Of a DNA stretch of 64,000 nucleotides, positions 10,329 to 20,311 are shown in pieces. Every line of letters starts with the position of its first letter. Position 1 is the stretch's first letter. Location of the stretch: IMG/VR virus record IMGVR_UViG_3300031417_000415. One strand, 5' to 3'. Below the pieces are notes generated by a model. It was not told the DNA's origin. It did no database searches and saw only the letters and a program-made list of their open reading frames with translations. The stretch is from a virus. Its lineage: Duplodnaviria; Heunggongvirae; Uroviricota; Caudoviricetes. The translations under genes were made by a program, and so were the position numbers.

Positions 10329-10452
10329 CGGCCTCGACGCCGTCCAGAACAGTGTCCGGCACCGGCCGGGCAGGGTGCTTCTCCGCGAATGCGTTGAAGG
10401 CGTCTCCTCAAGGTGGGGGGAAAATGAAGTGAACAGTCGAAAGGAATACATC

Positions 10453-10803
10453 ATGAGCAAGCCCATCCCAGCATCGGTCGAAGCCAACCGCGCCAAGTTC
10501 CGCGAGCAGGGCGTCGCCAACAAGGCCGCACGCGCGACCGCACACGCCGATCTGATCGCCTCGCAGAAGCTCGTCGGCCAGGGCAACCGCGAGAGCCGCG
10601 CCTCGAACCTGTCGGCCAACGTCGAGAAGTTCCGCGCGATCGGCGTCGAGAACGCACCGCTGAAGGCGCAGGCCAAGGCCGACCGCATCGCCGGCGCGAC
10701 CGCGCGCAACGAGCAGCTCAAGGCCGAGGCCGCAGAGCGCAAGTCGGCGCGCATGTCGGCACACGCCGAGCGCAACGCGTCGATGAAGAAGGTCGCCGCG
10801 TAA
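10453..10803 (+). CDS. small Ala/Lys/Arg-rich helical protein, paralog A (internal two-fold repeat)
   Basis: about 75% identical to the 29762..30109 product; same upstream GGAAAATGAAG element and same downstream hairpins. Confidence 0.5.
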   Translation: MSKPIPASVEANRAKFREQGVANKAARATAHADLIASQKLVGQGNRESRASNLSANVEKFRAIGVENAPLKAQAKADRIAGATARNEQLKAEAAERKSARMSAHAERNASMKKVAA

Positions 10804-10874: not shown

Positions 10875-11090
10875 TTTCCAAGTCCACGCCGGCGGCCGCC
10901 TCATCTCGGCCGTTCCCTTCTCACCTCCGGCGTGGGCTCTGGAAGGACGTCTACCCGCAGGGCCTGGCCCTGCGGGAGGCCCCTTGCTTTTTCCGGACCA
11001 CCGGAAAACCGGCACGGCATCCGGGACGATGCCGTCCATGCTCTCTCCGGCAGGAGAAGGCTCGAAGACGACCAGCGAAAGGGAAAAGAA

Positions 11091-11953: not shown

Positions 11954-12333
11954 AAAAGCGACGACAGTCGCCTGCATCCATCTCTGCGCTGAGCTTGGAG
12001 ATTCGGAAAGACCGTGAGAAGGGAAAACCAGATCAGGGTCGATCCTCGTCGAAGCAACGCGATGGAGGTGGTCATGAAAGATCGACTTCGTGCGCTGGCT
12101 GCGGCGGCCCAGACGGGTCTCTGGACAACAGAGCTCCGTCAGGGCCCTCCGTAGCTGCGGGCACTGTATCCACAAGGCAGGCGCATGCATGCACCTGCTG
12201 GCTTAACGGGTTCGTGCCCATAGGGCGCGGTACCGCTTCACAGACCGGGCGGGGGAGAGATCCCACGCCCGGTCGACCCCTTTAATCTATGGCTCCGGCC
12301 CGGAAAACCCGGCCGCTGCGACGGAGACCCAAC

Positions 12334-12999
12334 ATGGCCGGACACACACGCACTGACCTGCCGCGCGGCATGCGACGCCTCGTCATCCGCGACGAGACCT
12401 GGGGCTGGCGCTTCGGCCGCGAGGTCCCCATCGTCGCACCGGACGGACGACGCTTCAAGGTGGACCTCAGGGACCTCACGGGCCTGGACTGGAACGAGAT
12501 CGAGCGCGGCACCCACAAGCGGTACTTCTCGGCCGAGCCGCAGCGGGTCGTCTCCTACATCGACCGCACGCTGCTGGGCTATACCGACGTCGCGGGCTTT
12601 CCGCGCGGGGCGCTGCCCGGCAACTGGCAGCCTGCACTGCGCAGGGGCTGGATCGGCGTCCATGGACCACGAGGTCTCTGGCAGTGGAAGCCTCATCCCT
12701 GGGTAATCCATCTGCGCAGTCCCGAAGACGTCTCCACCATGACCCGCATCTACCATCTCCTCGACATGCCCGTGGACGAGTGGGCCGACATCAAGGCCGC
12801 CGCGATCGTCGCCGCAGGATCGACCGTCGACGCGGAGATTCGCCGCGGACGGCAGAAGGACATGCGTTCCAGCGTCGAGGGGTTCTTCGGATGGGAGGGA
12901 CCGGGTCTTCCCCGCCCCACCGAGAAGCAGGTGCTGGCCTATATCGGCCGGCTGATCGAGGGGAAGTCCGAGCGTGAGAAGACGAGAGAAGCCGCTTGA
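12334..12999 (+). CDS. hypothetical protein
   Basis: ORF with GGAGAC RBS; Trp-rich. Confidence 0.4.
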   Translation: MAGHTRTDLPRGMRRLVIRDETWGWRFGREVPIVAPDGRRFKVDLRDLTGLDWNEIERGTHKRYFSAEPQRVVSYIDRTLLGYTDVAGFPRGALPGNWQPALRRGWIGVHGPRGLWQWKPHPWVIHLRSPEDVSTMTRIYHLLDMPVDEWADIKAAAIVAAGSTVDAEIRRGRQKDMRSSVEGFFGWEGPGLPRPTEKQVLAYIGRLIEGKSEREKTREAA

Positions 13000-13180
13000 C
13001 ATCCTCCCCCAGCTGAAGCCTGGGGGATTCCTATAGCTAGCCGCTAAGGGCGTCCAACGGTCATGCGGCGAGCTTGCACTCGCCGCGTATTCCCATTGAA
13101 CCTTCCTGCTTCCTTCGGAGCCATTCGGCCCCGTTCTTCGCCGGTTGCACATCGTCCTTACGAACGATGCGTCCTACATC
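12990..13180 (-). ncRNA. candidate TnpB omega-RNA (overlaps tnpB 3' end and right-end hairpin)
   Basis: inference from IS200/IS605 architecture; right-end hairpin CCCCCAGCTGAAGCCTGGGGG lies just past the tnpB stop. Confidence 0.25.
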
Positions 13181-14390
13181 GACTCCACAGGCCTTCCGCC
13201 GTTCGGCGAGGATCGCAAGTCCTGCGACCCTTATGTTGATGGCGGCGTTGACGTCCCGGTCGTGGGCCACGCCGCACGACGGACACGTCCAGGCACGAAC
13301 GTCGAGAGCCATCTCCGCCATCCGATGCCCGCAGCCGGAGCATTTCTTGCTCGAAGGCTCCCACTGCGAGATCCTGACGATCTCGCGCCCATACCACGCC
13401 GCCTTGTACTCGAGCTGCCGCACGAACTCGCCCCAGGCCGCATCGGAGATGGACAAAGCCAGCTTCCGGTTCCTGACCATGGCACTCGCCCGTAGCGTCT
13501 CAATGCAGATCACCTGGTTCTCGGCGATCAGCTTCGACGACAGCTTGTGGAGGAAATCCAGCCGAACCCTGCGCACGCGCGCGTGGACACGCGCGACCTT
13601 CCTCCTGCTCTTCTCCCTGTTCCTGCCGCCCTTGGCCTTGCGGGCGTGATCACGTTGCGCTCTCGCCAGACGATCGAGCGACTTCCTCAGCGCTCTAGGT
13701 GCATCGATGCGACTGCCCCGATCGTCCATGACGTAGTTGGTGAGGCCAAGATCGACGCCGATGGCGTCACGGCCGCCTGCGGCGGCCGAGGTCTCGACCT
13801 CGACCTTCAGCGACACCCACCAGGTGCCGTCCGGCTCGAGACTGATGGTCATGGTGCTGGGGTCGCCCCAGAACACCTGCGTCCAGACGAGGTTCAGCGG
13901 CTGCTTCGACTTGGCCATCGTCAGGACCTTGCCGTCCCAGCCGAAGGCGGAGGCCGTGAACTCCGCCGACTGACGGAGACGACGCTTCATGAAGCTCGGA
14001 TAGCCGACCTTGCGGCCGGCCGGGGCCTTGCACCATCTGAAGAACTTCCTGAACGCCCCTTCGAGATGCCGCAGCTTCTGCTGCAGCGGCACGCAGCTGA
14101 CCTCGTTCAACCAGACGAACGCGGGGTCCTTCTTCCACTCGGTGAGCAGCGCGGACATGTCCGCATAGGACATGCCCTTCTTCTCTTCGCGCCAGCGGCG
14201 CGAGCGCTCCGCGATCATCCGATTCACGACCCAGCGTTCGCACCCGAAGGTGCGAACGAGCAGAGCCGCCTGCTCGGCAGTCGGGTAGTAGCGATAGCGA
14301 AGGCCACAGATCTGCTTCACGAAGATCGTGTTATCCTGTTTTCCTGAAAAGGAAAACGCATTCCTCCCCCGGCTGAAGCCTGGGGTATCC
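13000..14390 (-). mobile_element. IS200/IS605-family (IS1341-like) insertion sequence carrying only tnpB
   Basis: near-identical 27 bp subterminal hairpin-forming direct repeats TCCTCCCCCRGCTGAAGCCTGGGGKAT at 13002-13028 and 14362-14388 flank a TnpB gene; no TnpA. Confidence 0.6.
13061..14320 (-). CDS. tnpB: TnpB (OrfB_IS605) RNA-guided RuvC nuclease with zinc finger
   Basis: N-terminus MKQICGLRYRYYPTAEQAALLVRTFGCERWVVN, RuvC motifs, CSGCGHR...CPSCG zinc finger and NAAINI RuvC-III motif. Confidence 0.8.
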   Translation of the reverse strand: MKQICGLRYRYYPTAEQAALLVRTFGCERWVVNRMIAERSRRWREEKKGMSYADMSALLTEWKKDPAFVWLNEVSCVPLQQKLRHLEGAFRKFFRWCKAPAGRKVGYPSFMKRRLRQSAEFTASAFGWDGKVLTMAKSKQPLNLVWTQVFWGDPSTMTISLEPDGTWWVSLKVEVETSAAAGGRDAIGVDLGLTNYVMDDRGSRIDAPRALRKSLDRLARAQRDHARKAKGGRNREKSRRKVARVHARVRRVRLDFLHKLSSKLIAENQVICIETLRASAMVRNRKLALSISDAAWGEFVRQLEYKAAWYGREIVRISQWEPSSKKCSGCGHRMAEMALDVRAWTCPSCGVAHDRDVNAAINIRVAGLAILAERRKACGVDVGRIVRKDDVQPAKNGAEWLRRKQEGSMGIRGECKLAA

Positions 14391-14403
14391 TGCGGAGATT
14401 ATT

Positions 14404-14628
14404 ATGATCATCACGGGACCCGCAAACGACAACGCCGCGCAGACGGAACTCGAACGGGCGATCGGCGAGTCCCCGGGCCCGATGTCCGGCGATCCGTGGT
14501 GGCAGAGACGACGGCATCTGACGATGATGGAGTACGGCGCGATGCGCGCAGTCGACGGCGAGCCGCTCTGGCCGGCGGCCGCCGAGTATCTGCGCCACCA
14601 GAACGACATGGACAGGTTCCTGCCATAG
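14404..14628 (+). CDS. hypothetical protein (74 aa)
   Basis: start 15 nt past the IS left end, RBS GGAGA. Confidence 0.25.
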   Translation: MIITGPANDNAAQTELERAIGESPGPMSGDPWWQRRRHLTMMEYGAMRAVDGEPLWPAAAEYLRHQNDMDRFLP

Positions 14629-14690
14629 ACGCAGCCCCGTTTCTGGGCACCATCAGGAACGGGTTGAATCACGCCCGGATCGGGCTGTAA

Positions 14691-14702
14691 TTTTCAGGAT
14701 AG
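14691..14702 (+). promoter_or_regulatory. TTTTCAGGATAG copy of the recurring TTTCAGGATGA motif in an AT-rich stretch
   Basis: one of six or seven copies, all 50-200 nt upstream of start codons. Confidence 0.3.
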
Positions 14703-14761
14703 CTCTTGCGCGGTTAACCATTTCGAGGTATTACTTCGTTAACCCCAGCAGGAGTACCGTC

Positions 14762-14917
14762 ATGCACTACGCAGCCATCGATCGCTCCACCAGCACCCCG
14801 GCTCCGGCACCGCGGGAACTGCGCCGCTACTCGCCGCGCATGACGCTGGCCATCCTGACGGGCATCTCGCTCACGAGCTGGTCTCTCATCATCATGGGTA
14901 TCCGCTCGGTCATCTGA
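14762..14917 (+). CDS. small membrane peptide (51 aa)
   Basis: RBS AGCAGGAG; hydrophobic C-terminus; followed by a canonical terminator. Confidence 0.25.
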   Translation: MHYAAIDRSTSTPAPAPRELRRYSPRMTLAILTGISLTSWSLIIMGIRSVI

Positions 14918-14943
14918 TCGCCTGCTCAGGTTACATCCATCAA

Positions 14944-14964
14944 GGGCCCTCCGGGGCCCTTTTT
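14944..14964 (+). terminator. rho-independent terminator GGGCCCTCCGGGGCCCTTTTT
   Basis: GC hairpin plus T5 run. Confidence 0.5.
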
Positions 14965-15006
14965 CGTGAGCGAGGCCCCGAAAAGACGGAAACGCTCCAC
15001 GGACGA

Positions 15007-15018
15007 TTTTCAGGATGA
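15007..15018 (+). promoter_or_regulatory. TTTTCAGGATGA motif copy
   Basis: recurring motif. Confidence 0.3.
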
Positions 15019-15212
15019 CACGGACCGATATCAACGGGTAGCATTGCGGATGGCCTACGGAAGGGAAAAGACCCGGAATCCGTCGCCGCGATGCGGCAGG
15101 CCGTCGTCGTCGCCCACGATACGGGCACCCAGCACCGCGAGCATGTCCACGGGAACCGGTCCTCCGGTACGCCCGACCGGCTGCGCGCACGTCCCCTGAA
15201 CGGAGCATCGCC

Positions 15213-16100
15213 ATGCGTACACTCGAGGAGTATTCGGTCGTCCTGCCTCCGGTCGCCTGCGCCGACGTCGCCACCATGGCGGGCCAGGCGCTCATCGTGT
15301 GCCCCGACGACGACTGCGAGATCATGGTACGCGACTATCTGTTCACGCCGTTCGGCCTCACGGCCACCATACGCTTCGACCCGAACGGCGGCATCGCCGA
15401 CAAGAAGCTCTCGGCCGGAAGCTGGCACGATCTCCTCAACGCAGCGATCGAGACGCTCGCCAGGCGTGCCGGCATCGACCAGGAGGACGAGGAGGACTGG
15501 CCCCGCATGGCGACGCTGCTCTCCGAATGGCAGACGGTACTCGACGACGCCGCTATCATCGCCGACCTGGCGTCGGAGCGGATCTTCGTCATTCCGGGCC
15601 TCGAGGGGCACGCGGACCTGCTAGGGTCGATCCTCGACGGCACCGTCACCATGGCCGAGGCGCGCGCCGCGGCGGTGAACCCGGTGGACTTCGAGAACGA
15701 CCAGTCGCTTCGCCGCAGCGGCGTCGTGATCGACGACACGTGGTCGCAGGACGAGAACGAGATCGACGAGGCGATCGCCGCCGCCGCGCTCGAGGACGAG
15801 GTCGTCCTGTTCGGCGTCCTCGACGACGAGGACCAGTTCCTGCACACCATCGGACTGTCGGAACTCGCGTGGCCCGAGATCGTGGTTCGCAATCTCGACC
15901 CGCACCTCTCGCCCTTCCTGCTGCGCACCATCGTGGCGCTGCACGAGATGGCCGGCGTCGTTCCGACGGCGGGGCGTATCCCTGACGAGATCATGCCGGG
16001 CGGACTGCGGCTCCGCGCGCTGGACCGGGCGACGGTGCACGAGGCGTTTCCCCGCGCCGACGGGGGCACGGGCATCCTCGAGGTCGTCTTCCCGCTATAG
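15213..16100 (+). CDS. hypothetical protein with DUF4262-like C-terminal region
   Basis: motif FLHTIGLSELAWPEIVV resembles DUF4262. Confidence 0.4.
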   Translation: MRTLEEYSVVLPPVACADVATMAGQALIVCPDDDCEIMVRDYLFTPFGLTATIRFDPNGGIADKKLSAGSWHDLLNAAIETLARRAGIDQEDEEDWPRMATLLSEWQTVLDDAAIIADLASERIFVIPGLEGHADLLGSILDGTVTMAEARAAAVNPVDFENDQSLRRSGVVIDDTWSQDENEIDEAIAAAALEDEVVLFGVLDDEDQFLHTIGLSELAWPEIVVRNLDPHLSPFLLRTIVALHEMAGVVPTAGRIPDEIMPGGLRLRALDRATVHEAFPRADGGTGILEVVFPL

Positions 16101-16115
16101 CCCCTGACGACGAAC

Positions 16116-16142
16116 CCCGCGCCGGCTTTCGCCGACGCGGGG
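16116..16142. terminator. bidirectional hairpin CCCCGCG...CGCGGGG between convergent genes
   Basis: 7 bp GC stem between the 16100 stop (+) and the 16172 stop (-). Confidence 0.3.
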
Positions 16143-16171
16143 CCTCCCCGTCCCAGGGATGTCTTGCCGGA

Positions 16172-17290
16172 CTACCGGCCGACCATGGCCGCAACGGCGA
16201 ACGAGCGGGTCGCAGCCTGATGGGCGACGACGCGGTCGGCGTCCTGCATGGAAGCAGACTGCCTGACGCGGGGCGGAAGAGCAATAGCGCCTATCGTCGC
16301 CGTCCTCTGCGACGGACGCGATCCCGGCATTGCGTCGCGTACCATCTGCGCCGTGAGGGCCGCCTCCACCCAGACCTTCCGGTCCTCGACCCTGTCCCGA
16401 TCCGGAATCGGCGCCGTGTCGCTCCCGGGCACGTCGCGGAAGCGCAGGCGGAGCGAGGCCTCCGACATCATGCCAATGCGGGCAGCCTCGACGGCCACCG
16501 CCGCGTGCGCCTCGCGGCTGCGGTCGACGAGCAAGGGAGCGGGCTCCCAGGTCGTCTCTACCGGCCCACGGCGATGCGAGGCCGCGCGGACGACGGCCGA
16601 CGGCGAGAGCAGGCCCTGCCGGGCGGCGGCATGCTCGGCGCGCAGAGCGTCCTCCATCCACCTGCGCCGCTCCTCGCCGCGGTCCGGCATGGGCACGAAC
16701 GACGCGATGGGCATGTCGCGGAAGCGGTCCTGGATCACGCCCGTGCTCTGACGCTCCAGCATCTCGGATTCCGCCGCCACGCGCTCGTCGAGCCGGCGGC
16801 CGTCCTTCATGAAGTCCACGACGCGGCCCGTCACGTCGGCCCTGAGGGCGAAGGTGCGCTCGGGAAAGTTCGACGGGACGGTCTCGTCGGAGGCGAGCCG
16901 GCTGACGACCTGGCGGTCGATCGCGTCCAGGACCTGCGGACCGGCCTCGCCCTTGGGCGTCATGTAGTCGCCGTCACGCGACAGCGCCTCGAACATCTTG
17001 CGGTCGGTCCAGCCGTCGCGGCCGGGGCCCGGCAGCGGCACGAGGGCCTCGCTCTCGAAGCCGAAGGGCTGCCCCATGCTGCGCACCGCCTCGGCAGGCG
17101 TCATGTCCGCCGTGTGCCGCCTGAGTCTCATCATGATGGCGACCAGGCTGGCCTGATGCGGATCGAGACCGGCGGGCGCGGTCCACTCGGCATCGCTCTG
17201 GAGACGGGTCTCCGCGACCGGCTGCTCGGGCATCGCGGCCTGCTCCCTGGCGCCGGTGAGCCGTTCCTTCAGCCTTCCCACAAAACCCAT
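16172..17290 (-). CDS. hypothetical protein (372 aa), minus strand
   Basis: protein-like composition (E, D, K, M, F) against an R/G-rich spurious sense-strand ORF; divergent from the 17372 gene. Confidence 0.5.
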   Translation of the reverse strand: MGFVGRLKERLTGAREQAAMPEQPVAETRLQSDAEWTAPAGLDPHQASLVAIMMRLRRHTADMTPAEAVRSMGQPFGFESEALVPLPGPGRDGWTDRKMFEALSRDGDYMTPKGEAGPQVLDAIDRQVVSRLASDETVPSNFPERTFALRADVTGRVVDFMKDGRRLDERVAAESEMLERQSTGVIQDRFRDMPIASFVPMPDRGEERRRWMEDALRAEHAAARQGLLSPSAVVRAASHRRGPVETTWEPAPLLVDRSREAHAAVAVEAARIGMMSEASLRLRFRDVPGSDTAPIPDRDRVEDRKVWVEAALTAQMVRDAMPGSRPSQRTATIGAIALPPRVRQSASMQDADRVVAHQAATRSFAVAAMVGR

Positions 17291-17310
17291 GTCGCATGTC
17301 CCGATTGCAA

Positions 17311-17321
17311 TTTCAGGATGA
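17311..17321 (+). promoter_or_regulatory. TTTCAGGATGA motif in a divergent intergenic region
   Basis: recurring motif. Confidence 0.3.
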
Positions 17322-17371
17322 TTGTCGCATGCGCCCCGGCATCCATCAACCTCAATGACTCGGAAACGACG

Positions 17372-17674
17372 ATGAGCGTCGACCTCGTGCGCCTGCTGGC
17401 CTCCTCCCTGATCGCCCTCGTGGCGACGACCACGGTCGTATGGCTGCTGCGTCGGCCCTCCGGGCGACGCTCGATCATCCTGGGCTGCACCCTCTCGCTG
17501 GCCTGCATGTCGGTGCCTGCCATGGTAATGGCGTTCGGCCCCCTTCCCGAGACCGAGAGCGTGATCGGCCGTGCCTCGGCGATCATCCCGCCAGCAGAGC
17601 CGTACCGGGAGGTGCCACCCCCAAGCCGACGGGGAGACGTCATCCTGCTCAGGCCGGCATCTGTCTCACGGTAG
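17372..17674 (+). CDS. small membrane protein (100 aa)
   Basis: C-terminal part of a long spurious ORF; two TM helices; followed by a hairpin. Confidence 0.35.
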   Translation: MSVDLVRLLASSLIALVATTTVVWLLRRPSGRRSIILGCTLSLACMSVPAMVMAFGPLPETESVIGRASAIIPPAEPYREVPPPSRRGDVILLRPASVSR

Positions 17675-17675
17675 C

Positions 17676-17698
17676 GCTCGCGTCGATCTGACGCGAGC
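17676..17698 (+). terminator. 9 bp perfect hairpin GCTCGCGTC-GATCT-GACGCGAGC
   Basis: immediately after the stop at 17674. Confidence 0.35.
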
Positions 17699-17895
17699 AT
17701 GATCAGGAAGATGGGGCGGGTGGCTTCTCCGGCATCGCCTTCGATCCGGGGGGAGGTCTGGGGCTTACGTGCGCCATTCGGGGGAGAAGTCTGCGCCGTA
17801 GTTCGGGGTGCCGGAGAAGCCGTGCCCCGATTAGCACGACGGTCCATCCTATCAACCGTGATGCGACGAACCGAACGAAAAAGCAGGAGGAACAT

Positions 17896-18162
17896 GTGGT
17901 GCTCGATCCGAGAACGTTCCTGGGCCAGTGCGTGGCCGGCACCCAGGGGCCCGACGACGTCGACGACTGGATCGACCGGTGGCACGACGGCGACTCGAAG
18001 GTCGAACTGCACGAGTATCTCGGCATGACATGGGAGGAGTACGCCAACTTCGGGCTCGCCCACGACGCGCTCCCCCACATCGTCGAGATCAGACGCCTGG
18101 TGGAGAAGGGACGCGCCGACATGCTGCATGGCCTCGCGAAGATCACCGGACGGGCGAACTAG
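17896..18162 (+). CDS. hypothetical protein (GTG start)
   Basis: AGGAGG RBS 5 nt upstream of GTG. Confidence 0.35.
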   Translation: MVLDPRTFLGQCVAGTQGPDDVDDWIDRWHDGDSKVELHEYLGMTWEEYANFGLAHDALPHIVEIRRLVEKGRADMLHGLAKITGRAN

Positions 18163-18193
18163 GCGCGAACGGACAGAGAGAAGGAAAACCAGG

Positions 18194-19852
18194 CTATTCG
18201 GATTTAGGCGTTGAAACACCTTTTGTTCTCAAACCAGACCGGTTAGTCCGCAACCATGCAGACGATCTCCGTGAGATGGACCACCGACAGTCAAGTCCGC
18301 GACACCGTCGCCGATTGGCTACGCATCGGTGCGGCCATGGTGCGTACCGGATATGCCGGCGGAGCGGACAGATCCGCCGGCGAAATCGAAGAGGTCATCA
18401 AGAAACGCTTCCCGGACCAGCCACTGGGAAGCTGGGCCGCGCACTGCGCGGCCTACGAGGCCAAGTCACTGAGGGCACGCGTGCCCAATGGGAGCATGGT
18501 GTTCGGCGGACGAGCCGAGCTGCTCCGCCGTCAGAAGGGGCTAATCTCCAGCAATATCTGGAAGGCGCGCCGCCACGGCCGCGCGCTGCCGATCATCGGC
18601 GACCGCACCCGATGGGGCAACCGACACTTCCGACTGTCGACCGACGCACGCAAATGCGTCATAACGTTCCTCAAGCACGAGGTGACTCTGGATCTGGTCG
18701 AAATGGCCGGCAAGCACGGCGCGCTGCTGCGCGCCATCGCCCTGCTCGCCGACGCCTGCCAGATCAGCGTACAGTTCTCGCTGACGCCGACGCACCTGAA
18801 CGTAACCTTCGACGAGATGGACCTGCGCCGGCTGCCGCCGGGCATGTCGCTCGAGGATGTGAAGATCCGCGAGCAGGGCGCGTCCCGCCGCGGGCGAAAA
18901 CGCAAGGACGCCTCGACGCACTATGCTGCGCACCGCATAAAGCACACCCCAGACCGGCCGGTGCACCCTGAGTGGCGTGATGCAGTACCTACCGTGGCTA
19001 CCCGCGCCATCGGCCTGGATCTAAACCCGGAATGGATCGGCATCTCCGTCATCCAGATCGACGGCGATCAACAGGATGCGGACCATGTCCGCATCCTCGA
19101 CCATGTCCTGCACCGCATCGCCGTCCCGTTCGCCGCCGAGGCCGCGAACATGACCCGTACCATGGCCAACGTGGCCGCTCAGATCATCAGTCTGGCACGC
19201 GCCTGGAACTGTGGCCTCGTCGTCCACGAGAACGGTCTCGGCAAGCTCGCCTGGTCCAAGAAATCCCGTTCCGGCCAGCAGCTGCAGACCGTGAACTACT
19301 GGTCCCGCAACGCGCTGATCGGCGGGCTGACCCGCCGCTGCAAGCTGGCGGACATAAGGTTTCTGCCAATCTGGGGTGGCTATTCCACCACGATCGGCAA
19401 CATGCTCTTCGAACTGCCTGACGCGTGCGCATCAGCAGCGGAGATCGCACGACGGGGCTTCGCCTCGACGTGCGGCATCAAGGACCGGTTTCCGGTTGTC
19501 CCAGTGCAGGTGGCTTCTCGCCGATGGAAGGATGAGAAGCTACCCACTGCCATGGTGAAGGCCCTGGCGAGCGCGGACAGCTGGCAGGCGGTCCACCGGG
19601 CAATCAAACCGGCGCAGGCCGGGACGCGCAAGCGTCCCGGCATTGGCTACCGTCGGCTGCATCCATTGTCCTCGAACATGGTACCCGGGCGCCTGCTCCG
19701 ACTTGGAGATACGGGCTACGCAGTGAACCGGCTTGGGAATGGAAAAGGAGTGAGCTGTTCGGCCCGCCCGGTTCGACTATCCAGAACGGTTCGAGATAGT
19801 TCGGACCGGGTGACGGTCAGCGTGAGCTGATTCCACACTCAAATCCGAATAG
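18194..19852 (+). mobile_element. 1.66 kb TIR-bounded element encoding a TnpB-like protein, with 10 bp target-site duplication GAAAACCAGG
   Basis: TIR-L CTATTCGGATTTAGG at 18194-18208 and TIR-R CTCAAATCCGAATAG at 19838-19852; direct repeat GAAAACCAGG at 18184-18193 and 19855-19864. Confidence 0.5.
18256..19830 (+). CDS. TnpB-like RuvC-fold nuclease (524 aa) with no recognisable zinc finger
   Basis: TnpB-like N-terminus; RuvC-I AIGLDLNPEWIGISV, RuvC-II LVVHENGLGKLAWS, RuvC-III DACASAAEIARRG; no CxxC..CxxC between II and III. Confidence 0.6.
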   Translation: MQTISVRWTTDSQVRDTVADWLRIGAAMVRTGYAGGADRSAGEIEEVIKKRFPDQPLGSWAAHCAAYEAKSLRARVPNGSMVFGGRAELLRRQKGLISSNIWKARRHGRALPIIGDRTRWGNRHFRLSTDARKCVITFLKHEVTLDLVEMAGKHGALLRAIALLADACQISVQFSLTPTHLNVTFDEMDLRRLPPGMSLEDVKIREQGASRRGRKRKDASTHYAAHRIKHTPDRPVHPEWRDAVPTVATRAIGLDLNPEWIGISVIQIDGDQQDADHVRILDHVLHRIAVPFAAEAANMTRTMANVAAQIISLARAWNCGLVVHENGLGKLAWSKKSRSGQQLQTVNYWSRNALIGGLTRRCKLADIRFLPIWGGYSTTIGNMLFELPDACASAAEIARRGFASTCGIKDRFPVVPVQVASRRWKDEKLPTAMVKALASADSWQAVHRAIKPAQAGTRKRPGIGYRRLHPLSSNMVPGRLLRLGDTGYAVNRLGNGKGVSCSARPVRLSRTVRDSSDRVTVSVS

Positions 19853-19864
19853 CCGAAAACCAGG
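19730..19864 (+). ncRNA. candidate guide/scaffold RNA region at the 3' end of the TnpB-like gene
   Basis: imperfect 13 bp inverted repeat CCGGTTCGACTATC...GATAGTTCGGACCGG inside the ORF 3' end and right end. Confidence 0.2.
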
Positions 19865-20311
19865 ATGGCACGCAACGTCACGATCGTCGCGGGAACGCTG
19901 GACGACACGACACGCGCCGCGCTCGTGGCGCTGCTCGCACGGCCGCTGCCGGCGATCGTGCGCCGGGCGCTGTCGGCGGCGCGCGACCTCGACGACGGAC
20001 TGACCAGCGCACCCCAGCACTCGCTCTACGGCGTGCTGGAGGCGTTGTACGCCTGGCAGACCAGGGCGATGCCGCAGCTGCAGGACGAGGTGCGCGCGAT
20101 CCACGCGTCGGCGGTCCGCCTGGAGGGGCCGCAGACCGTGCAGACCTGTGCGATCCGCGAGATGCTGGGTCTGGCATCGTACATCGCCGACGGCGGCAGG
20201 GCCGAACGGATCGGCGAGCGCATCGGCACGCTGTGCGGGTCGCTGTCCGAGCTCCGCCAGGGCCCGCTGCTGACGTCGGAGGAGCCGCGCGTCCTGCTCG
20301 GAGCCGCCTGA
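19865..20311 (+). CDS. hypothetical protein
   Basis: start directly after the duplicated GAAAACCAGG. Confidence 0.45.
   Translation: MARNVTIVAGTLDDTTRAALVALLARPLPAIVRRALSAARDLDDGLTSAPQHSLYGVLEALYAWQTRAMPQLQDEVRAIHASAVRLEGPQTVQTCAIREMLGLASYIADGGRAERIGERIGTLCGSLSELRQGPLLTSEEPRVLLGAA

Follow-up and report, generated by a model that had tools for sequence, protein, structure and literature searches.

Among insertion sequences (IS) of the IS200/IS605 family, whose tnpB-only members are modeled on IS608 and ISDra2, targets are short: IS608 has the target TTAC and a right end finishing in ...TCAA, and ISDra2 has the target TTGAT. A duplication of 8 bp at the target is typical of the ISL3 family, whose transposases are of the DDE type. 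TnpB proteins that are linked to DDE transposons, and solo TnpBs located within the ends of such transposons, have also been described (Altae-Tran et al., 2023; PMC10691335), while Fanzor1 proteins are carried by eukaryotic and viral transposons whose terminal inverted repeats (TIRs) as well as target-site duplications (TSDs) were proposed to form part of the RNA scaffold (Yoon et al., 2023; PMC10711439). Here we analyzed two elements with genes of the TnpB family in a 64,000-nucleotide stretch of DNA, referred to as the window, from the IMG/VR virus record IMGVR_UViG_3300031417_000415 (Caudoviricetes): an IS605-like element with a canonical tnpB gene, and an element with ISL3-type TIRs that carries a gene for a TnpB-like protein (Table 1). 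Taken together, our results make it very probable that these are two different non-autonomous elements that are both located at gene starts and have different targets, a GGAAA-type ribosome-binding sequence in one case and TCAT (ATGA on the opposite strand) in the other.

The ends of the TIR element are marked by the sequence GGCTATTCGGATTT, which is present in the window only at 18192-18205 (plus strand) and 19841-19854 (minus strand). The 10-nt sequence GAAAACCAGG is found both at 18185-18194 and at 19855-19864, and the original prediction had taken all of it to be duplicated. While the duplication is real, it comprises only 8 bp (GAAAACCA), since comparison within the family demonstrated that the repeat begins with GGCTAT, and the extra GG coincides with the native sequence, which reads ...CCAGGATG. 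The insertion site belongs to a motif that is frequent in the window, where GGAAAA occurs 34 times on the plus strand and four times on the minus strand, and where in about 24 of the 34 plus-strand copies an ATG comes 2-5 nt downstream. This motif, with typical forms such as gaAGGAAAAgacATG and ggAGGAAAAcgATG, is genuine and strongly strand-biased, and looks like a Shine-Dalgarno core (AGGA or GGGA) followed by an A-rich spacer. Although GGAAAA(G/C) had been said to precede most start codons, the motif marks only about a third of the genes (17-25 of approximately 70 open reading frames (ORFs) in a rough gene call). The rebuilt empty site of the TIR element, gagagaag-GAAAACCA-ggATG, lies within one instance of it, with AAG and the left GAAAACCA copy forming the original ribosome-binding motif AAGGAAAACCA. 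The insertion split the AAGGAAAACCAGG-ATG ribosome-binding sequence of the gene starting at 19865, but as a result of the duplication GAAAACCAGG-ATG remains in front of this gene.

The location at such a sequence is not peculiar to the copy in the window. Family loci from genomes (Rhizobiales, Methylobacterium, Falsiroseomonas, Bradyrhizobium) and metagenomes provided 24 independent insertions with 8-bp duplications, and the terminus GGCTATYCGGATTT was kept down to a protein identity of 35%. The right-hand copy of the duplication started with GAA in 21 of the 24 insertions, compared to a background of 1.8% (P about 3e-34), and with GAAA in 16 of them, compared to a background of 0.45%. Position -1 was occupied by G (15) or A (7) in 22 insertions and never by C, position 1 by G in 18, positions 2, 3 and 4 by A in 22, 22 and 17, respectively, and position 5 by A in 11 and by T in 8 insertions. 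Since TTC was found at the far end of the duplication in only 3 of the 24 cases, the preference for GAA is oriented, and the resulting consensus, R-G|GAAA(A/T)NNN, is fitted by the ribosome-binding motif AAGGAAAA of the window. A downstream ORF starts at most 3 nt from the duplication in 10-11 of the 24 insertions; because the GAA register is also kept where no start is nearby, it does not merely reflect selection for downstream expression. A further copy of the family, on a plasmid of Acetobacter persici, has AAAATATC preceded by G. This plasmid from a cultured host (pAC1084_1; L181, NZ_CP014688.1) contains eight TnpB-like matches, all annotated as hypothetical. The original prediction had suggested that the GGAAAA motif is a preferred target and had proposed a survey of the flanks of other copies; for the TIR element this survey bears the suggestion out, the flanks being related to each other. 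According to the mechanism that we favor, members of this family would insert in one orientation at R-G|GAAA(A/T)NNN, a sequence that in a replicon with 66% G+C would be present mostly within the AAGGAAAA(G/C)-N2-4-ATG motif of about one third of the genes, so that insertions would come to lie between the Shine-Dalgarno core and the ATG. A pairing of the GA of the duplication with an upstream AUUGGCUA was also considered and was dropped, since the IGY peptide encoded by AUUGGCUA is conserved and this motif shows no covariation with variants of the TIR.

The ends of the element point to the enzyme by which it may be moved. The same 14-nt terminus bounds genes with the Pfam domains DDE_Tnp_ISL3 (E 1e-61), Zn_ribbon_ISL3 and HTH_Tnp_ISL3 at two loci (L193, L197), and a third transposase with these termini (L199) is an aligned homolog of both, with 41% identity to that of L197. 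Moreover, a scan for this TIR in viral contigs found the same termini with 8-bp duplications around ISL3 DDE transposases, methyltransferase cargo, and miniature inverted-repeat transposable elements (MITEs) of 263-769 bp. Elements ending in GGCTATTCGGATTT were common in these contigs (L182-L208), and DNA methyltransferases were carried by two of them (L197, L184). In the ISL3 transposase gene the ORF ends with KSE-stop inside the right repeat, and many of the TnpB-like ORFs stop at the same TAG. A BLAST comparison of the 30-nt right end with plasmids found this type of end to be common on ISL3 elements of Firmicutes. No MITE derivatives of the element were found in the alphaproteobacterial and metagenome loci. 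Because the same termini surround ISL3 transposases, the TIR element of the window can be classified as a non-autonomous member of the ISL3 type that carries a TnpB-like cargo; it has ISL3 inverted ends and an 8-bp duplication and lacks a transposase, and an ISL3 DDE transposase acting in trans would most likely move it. With the ISL3 family, in which ISRso21 with its methyltransferase passenger is the closest named relative of these transposases, it has in common the GGCTATTCGGATTT... repeats, the 8-bp duplication, the ORF stop within the right repeat and the presence of passenger genes. However, the TnpB-like gene replaces the DDE transposase, and the duplications follow the oriented GAAA(A/T)NNN instead of being generically A+T-rich.

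Judged from its sequence and predicted fold, the 524-aa product of this gene is a TnpB/Cas12-like protein without a zinc finger. The residues D255, E325 and D389, which correspond in order to the catalytic triad of TnpB, are invariant in 51 homologs, while no Cys quartet (C4 zinc finger or TNB) is conserved between RuvC-II and RuvC-III, YSTTIGN leading directly into LPDACASAAEIARRG. The AlphaFold (AF2) model has a predicted local distance difference test score (pLDDT) of 86, and the top 21 Foldseek matches of this model were Cas12f and Cas12k proteins (E 1e-7 to 8e-5, approximately 500 aligned columns, template-modeling (TM) scores of 0.25-0.50), the best of them spanning the entire model, in agreement with an overall WED-REC-RuvC fold. 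The protein itself matched neither Pfam nor NCBIfam, whereas among the 51 relatives 16 matched guided_TnpB (best E 2.7e-8) and 24 matched TIGR01766; a sequence search of the PDB with the family profile gave no match. A word-indexed search returned 156 relatives and an exhaustive profile search 1,242 clusters at 50% identity. The family is estimated at about 260-800 clusters at this identity, which come from Rhizobiales, Methylobacterium, Acetobacter and uncultured replicons of very large size. The TnpBs of DDE transposons described earlier, in particular the zinc-finger-less clade RIIIr-4, are similar in that a TnpB relative that has lost the C4 zinc finger is located within inverted repeats and presumably mobilized in trans (PMC10691335). 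RIIIr-4 differs in having His in RuvC-III, where the protein of the window has Asp, and neither a target-site preference nor insertion into ribosome-binding sites was described in that work; ISL3 is not mentioned in the main text of that study, and a literature search for a link between ISL3 and TnpB found no paper. A paralogous zinc-finger-less TnpB-like gene was observed at 25-1903 of locus L014, directly upstream of another member of the family. It encodes 593 aa with His in place of the RuvC-III Asp, and the element around it is bounded by ISL3 ends of this kind and by the duplication GACAGGC.

The 3' part of the TnpB-like gene contains an RNA-like structure. When the 3'-terminal 230 nt of 23 elements were examined, with 500 shuffles and slid partners as controls, 91.5% of the cells of a three-helix junction were paired, compared to 69.7% in the shuffles (reached by none of the 500) and 33-43% with slid partners. 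Compensatory changes were found in 11 of the 16 pairs, and G-U pairs favored the sense strand. The stems are located in variable segments of the peptide, between the conserved IGYRRLHP and GYAVxRLG. In addition, most elements were predicted by single-sequence folding to form a terminal hairpin, the 3' arm of which is provided by the right TIR (inner half; up to 19854 in the window). These features resemble the scaffolds of TnpB guide RNAs and that of Fanzor1, and the three-helix structure may be considered a candidate scaffold.

The IS605-like element was found to differ in both its ends and its target. Its 419-aa TnpB is canonical, with the Pfam domains HTH_OrfB_IS605 (PF12323), OrfB_IS605 (PF01385) and Cas12f1-like_TNB (PF07282; E 5e-13 to 3.5e-26). 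The ends were mapped on nine copies, comprising that of the window and eight others (71-93% protein identity) at other sites on other contigs, while TnpB relatives in viral contigs, all below 50% identity, were left out; a scan of the viral contigs with the left-end pattern gave no match. Seven copies, including that of the window, have in common a block that reads on the tnpB strand TCAT|AATAA(A)TCTCnCAGGATACCCC-hairpin-GGAGGAATGCGTTTTCCTTyTynnGAAAACAkGATAACAC...tnpB at the left and tnpB...hairpin-GGAGGATGTCAA| at the right, whereas two (L176, L180) kept both ends but have a different internal stretch without the hairpin at 14340-14359. The hairpins at 13002-13028 and 14362-14388 are direct copies of each other with 93% identity, and these are the only two matches in the window, none being found in shuffled sequences. 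The element has neither terminal inverted repeats nor a target duplication, and there is no repeat between its flanks (...GCCGC and ATGA...). Since the ends enclose no gene other than tnpB, the Y1 (HUH) transposase TnpA being absent, the element can be regarded as a non-autonomous member of the IS1341 type. For its guide RNA (omegaRNA or reRNA), no Rfam match was obtained at the gathering score, and no analysis was aimed at this RNA. The element thus resembles tnpB-only members of the IS200/IS605 family in its TnpB with HTH, OrfB and zinc-ribbon domains, in the similar subterminal hairpins at both ends, in the lack of TIRs and duplication, in a tetranucleotide that is conserved 5' of the left end, and in the right end finishing in TCAA. 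It differs in the target TCAT (ATGA), with surviving copies on start codons or stop/start overlaps and antisense to the host genes, in one more conserved hairpin, located between that of the left end and tnpB, and in the absence of TnpA.

The original prediction had placed the left end of this element next to a variant of the GGAAAA motif, and had regarded the motif as a possible target or transposon-adjacent motif (TAM) of this element as well. However, the sequence concerned, TTTTCCTGAAAAGGAAAAC (14340-14358), lies between the start of tnpB (14320) and the left-end hairpin, and this stretch was kept in six of the eight other copies, all at different sites, demonstrating that it belongs to the interior of the element, not to the flank. 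It folds as a hairpin of 6-7 bp, for which one copy (L175) has a compensatory change (GTTTTTC/GAAAAAC). In place of GGAAAAC most other copies have AGAAAAC or GAAAAAC, predominantly the former, indicating that the resemblance to the GGAAAA motif in the window copy is a coincidence. The true end is located at 14403/14404, where it abuts ATGA, and the conserved flank 5' of the left end is TCAT in seven of the nine copies, with ACAT and TTAT found once each.

In the window, the ATGA at 14404-14407 comprises the start codon of the gene 14404-14628 and the former stop codon of the gene starting at 12289. Deletion of 12996-14403 restores an empty site that reads ...GAAGCCGC|ATGATC..., a stop/start overlap in which the upstream gene ends with REAA-TGA. 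In the presence of the element, the stop TGA (12997-12999) of this gene at the upstream junction (12995-12999) is provided by the right terminus (TTGA, the reverse complement of TCAA), and the C-terminus REAA* is the same with or without the insertion. The left end places GGAGATTATT in front of the downstream ATG, with a GGAG 7 nt upstream of it that may serve as a ribosome-binding site, and the ends of the element would in this way keep both host genes expressed. The same arrangement of a rebuilt stop and a GGAG was found at an unrelated site (L177). For seven of the nine copies, a host gene antisense to tnpB was called with its start at the flanking ATG, one of these being a Flp/Fap pilin gene (L180). 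This is well in line with the proposal that insertions upstream of starts are either tolerated or selected. As TCAT sequences at start codons represent a small share of all TCAT sequences, the excess of seven in nine most likely results from the loss of intragenic insertions. The element would accordingly insert 3' of TCAT on its own strand, that is directly 5' of ATGA on the host strand, its right terminus TTGA would restore the upstream stop while its left end sets a GGAG before the downstream ATG, so that neither gene would be disrupted, and copies at start sites would survive while intragenic ones would be lost.

Several observations weigh against these interpretations. A tblastn search with ISL3 transposases detected none in the window, and we infer the mobilization of the TIR element in trans from its ends. 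In addition, the duplications of eight autonomous ISL3 elements with this TIR (GATTTAAC, GATATAGG, GATTTTTA, GAATAATT, CATTAAAT, ATTAAATA, CGTATAT and CTTTGTT) are A+T-rich, four of them beginning with GA and none showing GAAA. For the IS605-like element, target and flanks are derived from only nine copies, in one of which (L178) the left end is degenerate, and the ribosome-binding role of the GGAG is a putative one. An empty site for either insertion was not found among the contigs identified by exact flanking proteins, all of which carry both elements.

A tentative explanation for the difference between the TIR-element family and its autonomous relatives would be that the TnpB-like cargo, and not the transposase, is the source of the oriented GAAA. 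The 3' RNA of the element would then reach its end within the right TIR, and the first bases of the duplication would represent the TAM or a part of the scaffold; in an arrangement resembling that of Fanzor1, a functional guide would arise only from copies at GAAA, which would then spread by homing. As a whole, we consider this explanation possible but less likely than not. This explanation is favored by the covarying structure in the 3' part of the ORF together with the terminal hairpin that uses the inner TIR, by the invariant D-E-D triad, and by the Fanzor1 precedent (PMC10711439). Moreover, elements with the same TIR and without this cargo, i.e., the eight autonomous ones and approximately ten MITEs and elements with other cargo, mostly lack an oriented GAAA, C is never found at position -1 of the target, yet is present there at the occupied right junction, and the orientation bias persists at sites away from start codons. 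However, the elements without the cargo differ in host and in transposase lineage, which confounds the comparison, and both RNA and guide are putative. Furthermore, the GAAA is located 4 nt from the unique flank, which would be an unusual geometry for a TAM, and the occupied right junction also carries GAAA and the full target.

By comparison, a role of the TnpB-like protein as transposase is very unlikely; in this role, the protein would be a RuvC-fold enzyme that binds the inverted repeats of the TIR element and makes an 8-bp staggered cut. In all 24 elements this protein is the sole ORF, the duplications are perfect in most of them, the TIR is conserved over a wide range of protein identity as noted above, and the L014 paralog, a zinc-finger-less TnpB-like element, has the same type of ends. 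However, true ISL3 DDE transposases are surrounded by identical termini with 8-bp duplications, as are methyltransferase cargo and MITEs, the position of the ORF stop within the TIR (KSE-stop) is exactly that of the ISL3 transposase, and the fold is of the Cas12f/TnpB effector type and not that of a transposase; the presence of the same TIR on ISL3 DDE elements led us to reject the protein as transposase. Equally improbable, and as sole explanation already contradicted, is that both positions reflect chance or the mere survival of harmless insertions without any sequence preference: surviving insertions should gather at gene borders in a gene-dense replicon, and selection is needed to account for the start codons at seven of the nine IS605-like TCAT sites, but GAA is found in a fixed register and orientation in 21 of 24 insertions, even far from starts, and TCAT or a one-base variant lies beside all nine IS605-like copies.

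Table 1. Coordinates of the two TnpB-family elements, their parts and neighboring features in the window
Feature	Position	Strand	Basis or remark
Non-autonomous ISL3-type TIR element with TnpB-like gene, 1663 bp	18192..19854	+	TIR pair; same termini around ISL3 DDE transposase genes
Left terminal inverted repeat, perfect over 14 nt, 80% over 30 nt	18192..18221	+
Right terminal inverted repeat	19825..19854	-
Left copy of 8-bp target duplication GAAAACCA	18184..18191	+
Right copy of GAAAACCA, 2 nt upstream of next ATG	19855..19862	+
TnpB/Cas12-like protein, 524 aa	18256..19830	+	RuvC triad D255-E325-D389; no C4 zinc finger
Conserved three-helix structure, candidate guide-RNA scaffold	19657..19723	+	Pairing and compensatory changes
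Host gene, 148 aa, ribosome-binding site split by insertion	19865..20311	+	ORF list; G+C content at third codon positions (GC3) 0.92; called on all contigs
IS200/IS605-family element, tnpB-only (IS1341 type), 1408 bp	12996..14403	-	Conserved-block limits in 9 copies; scarless empty-site reconstruction
Right-end subterminal hairpin CCCCCAG/CTGGGGG, then terminus ...GGATGTCAA	13002..13028	-	Kept in other copies
tnpB, 419 aa, canonical TnpB	13061..14320	-	Pfam domains; relatives at 62-93% identity
Internal hairpin GTTTTCC-TTTTCA-GGAAAAC (tnpB strand); second palindrome, internal to IS605-like element	14340..14359	-	Same place in L177, L173, L174, L178, L175, L179
Left-end subterminal hairpin	14362..14388	-	Kept in other copies
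Left-end terminal segment, plus strand CCTGCGGAGATTATT	14389..14403	-	(A)ATAA(A)TCTCnCAGG conserved in copies
Target and presumed TAM TCAT (element strand), ATGA (host strand)	14404..14407	-	Copy flanks; empty-site reconstruction
Upstream host gene	12289..12999	+	ORF list; high GC3
Downstream host gene, 74 aa, ATG abuts element	14404..14628	+	Called on all contigs carrying it; GC3 0.82
Palindrome TTTTCCGG-ACCA-CCGGAAAA	~10988-11008		Between genes 10375-10803 and 11090

Palindromes of the form TTTTCC-N-GGAAAA had been put forward as a further context of the target. Both of the palindromes in question exist, yet neither plays a role in the target of either element. The palindrome near 11000 adjoins or overlaps the T tract of a G+C-rich, terminator-like hairpin at 10955-11008; a kinship with the hairpin of the IS605-like element was considered and dropped, since the two have only TTTTCC/GGAAAA in common and the former overlaps the terminator T tract. 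At 12010-12035 the sequence GAGAAGGGAAAACCAGATCAGG is close to GAGAAGGAAAACCAGGATG, at which the TIR element inserted, except for ATC in place of ATG, and may represent a decayed or duplicated ribosome-binding region.

With respect to the source, the window has a G+C content of 66% and nearly all of its genes are located on the plus strand; scans of the window for tRNAs and with Rfam gave no match, and a megablast search of phage records with the region was likewise negative. The sequence of the window was also found on very large contigs from metagenomes (552 kb and 1.06 Mb), whose encoded proteins are mostly without known domains; the source contigs are ENA ERZ27247433 k141_1011129 and JGI Ga0308169_10000012, together with the related Ga0308163_10000002. 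The replicon from which the window derives measures 1.06 Mb or more and is strongly strand-biased, and YadA anchor, Band_7, cation efflux, ADP-ribosylglycohydrolase and ART-PolyVal domains were seen as exceptions among proteins that nearly all lack known domains. A megaplasmid, a giant extrachromosomal element and an odd chromosome are the candidates for its nature.

In the IS605-like element, a four-base target and the sequences of the ends can allow an insertion to occupy a stop/start overlap and to leave both genes undamaged. For annotation, GGAAAA-type motifs beside such elements should not be called targets before the element ends have been mapped. To our knowledge, the cooperation of TnpB-family nucleases with bacterial DDE transposons has barely been studied, work having centered on IS605 and IS607. 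The ISL3-ended element could conceivably be a bacterial counterpart of the Fanzor1 type, in which an RNA-guided, zinc-finger-less TnpB-like nuclease has replaced the transposase, the scaffold extends through the right TIR, and GAAA is either the TAM or assimilated into the scaffold, although we regard this as less likely than not. Like Fanzor1, the TnpB-family gene is the sole ORF of a non-autonomous element with TIRs and TSDs and has a structured 3' RNA, here a predicted one as is the guide; unlike Fanzor1, the element is bacterial and has ISL3 ends, and its protein lacks a zinc finger. If the Fanzor1-type reading were true, the specificity of a nuclease would be coupled to the site of insertion, and an insertion element that seeks ribosome-binding sites would have arisen as a side effect. 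The ISL3-type TnpB-like family, which is compact and widespread and combines clear ends and an oriented target with an intact triad and a covarying RNA-like structure, makes the question of how such nucleases cooperate with DDE transposons a testable one.

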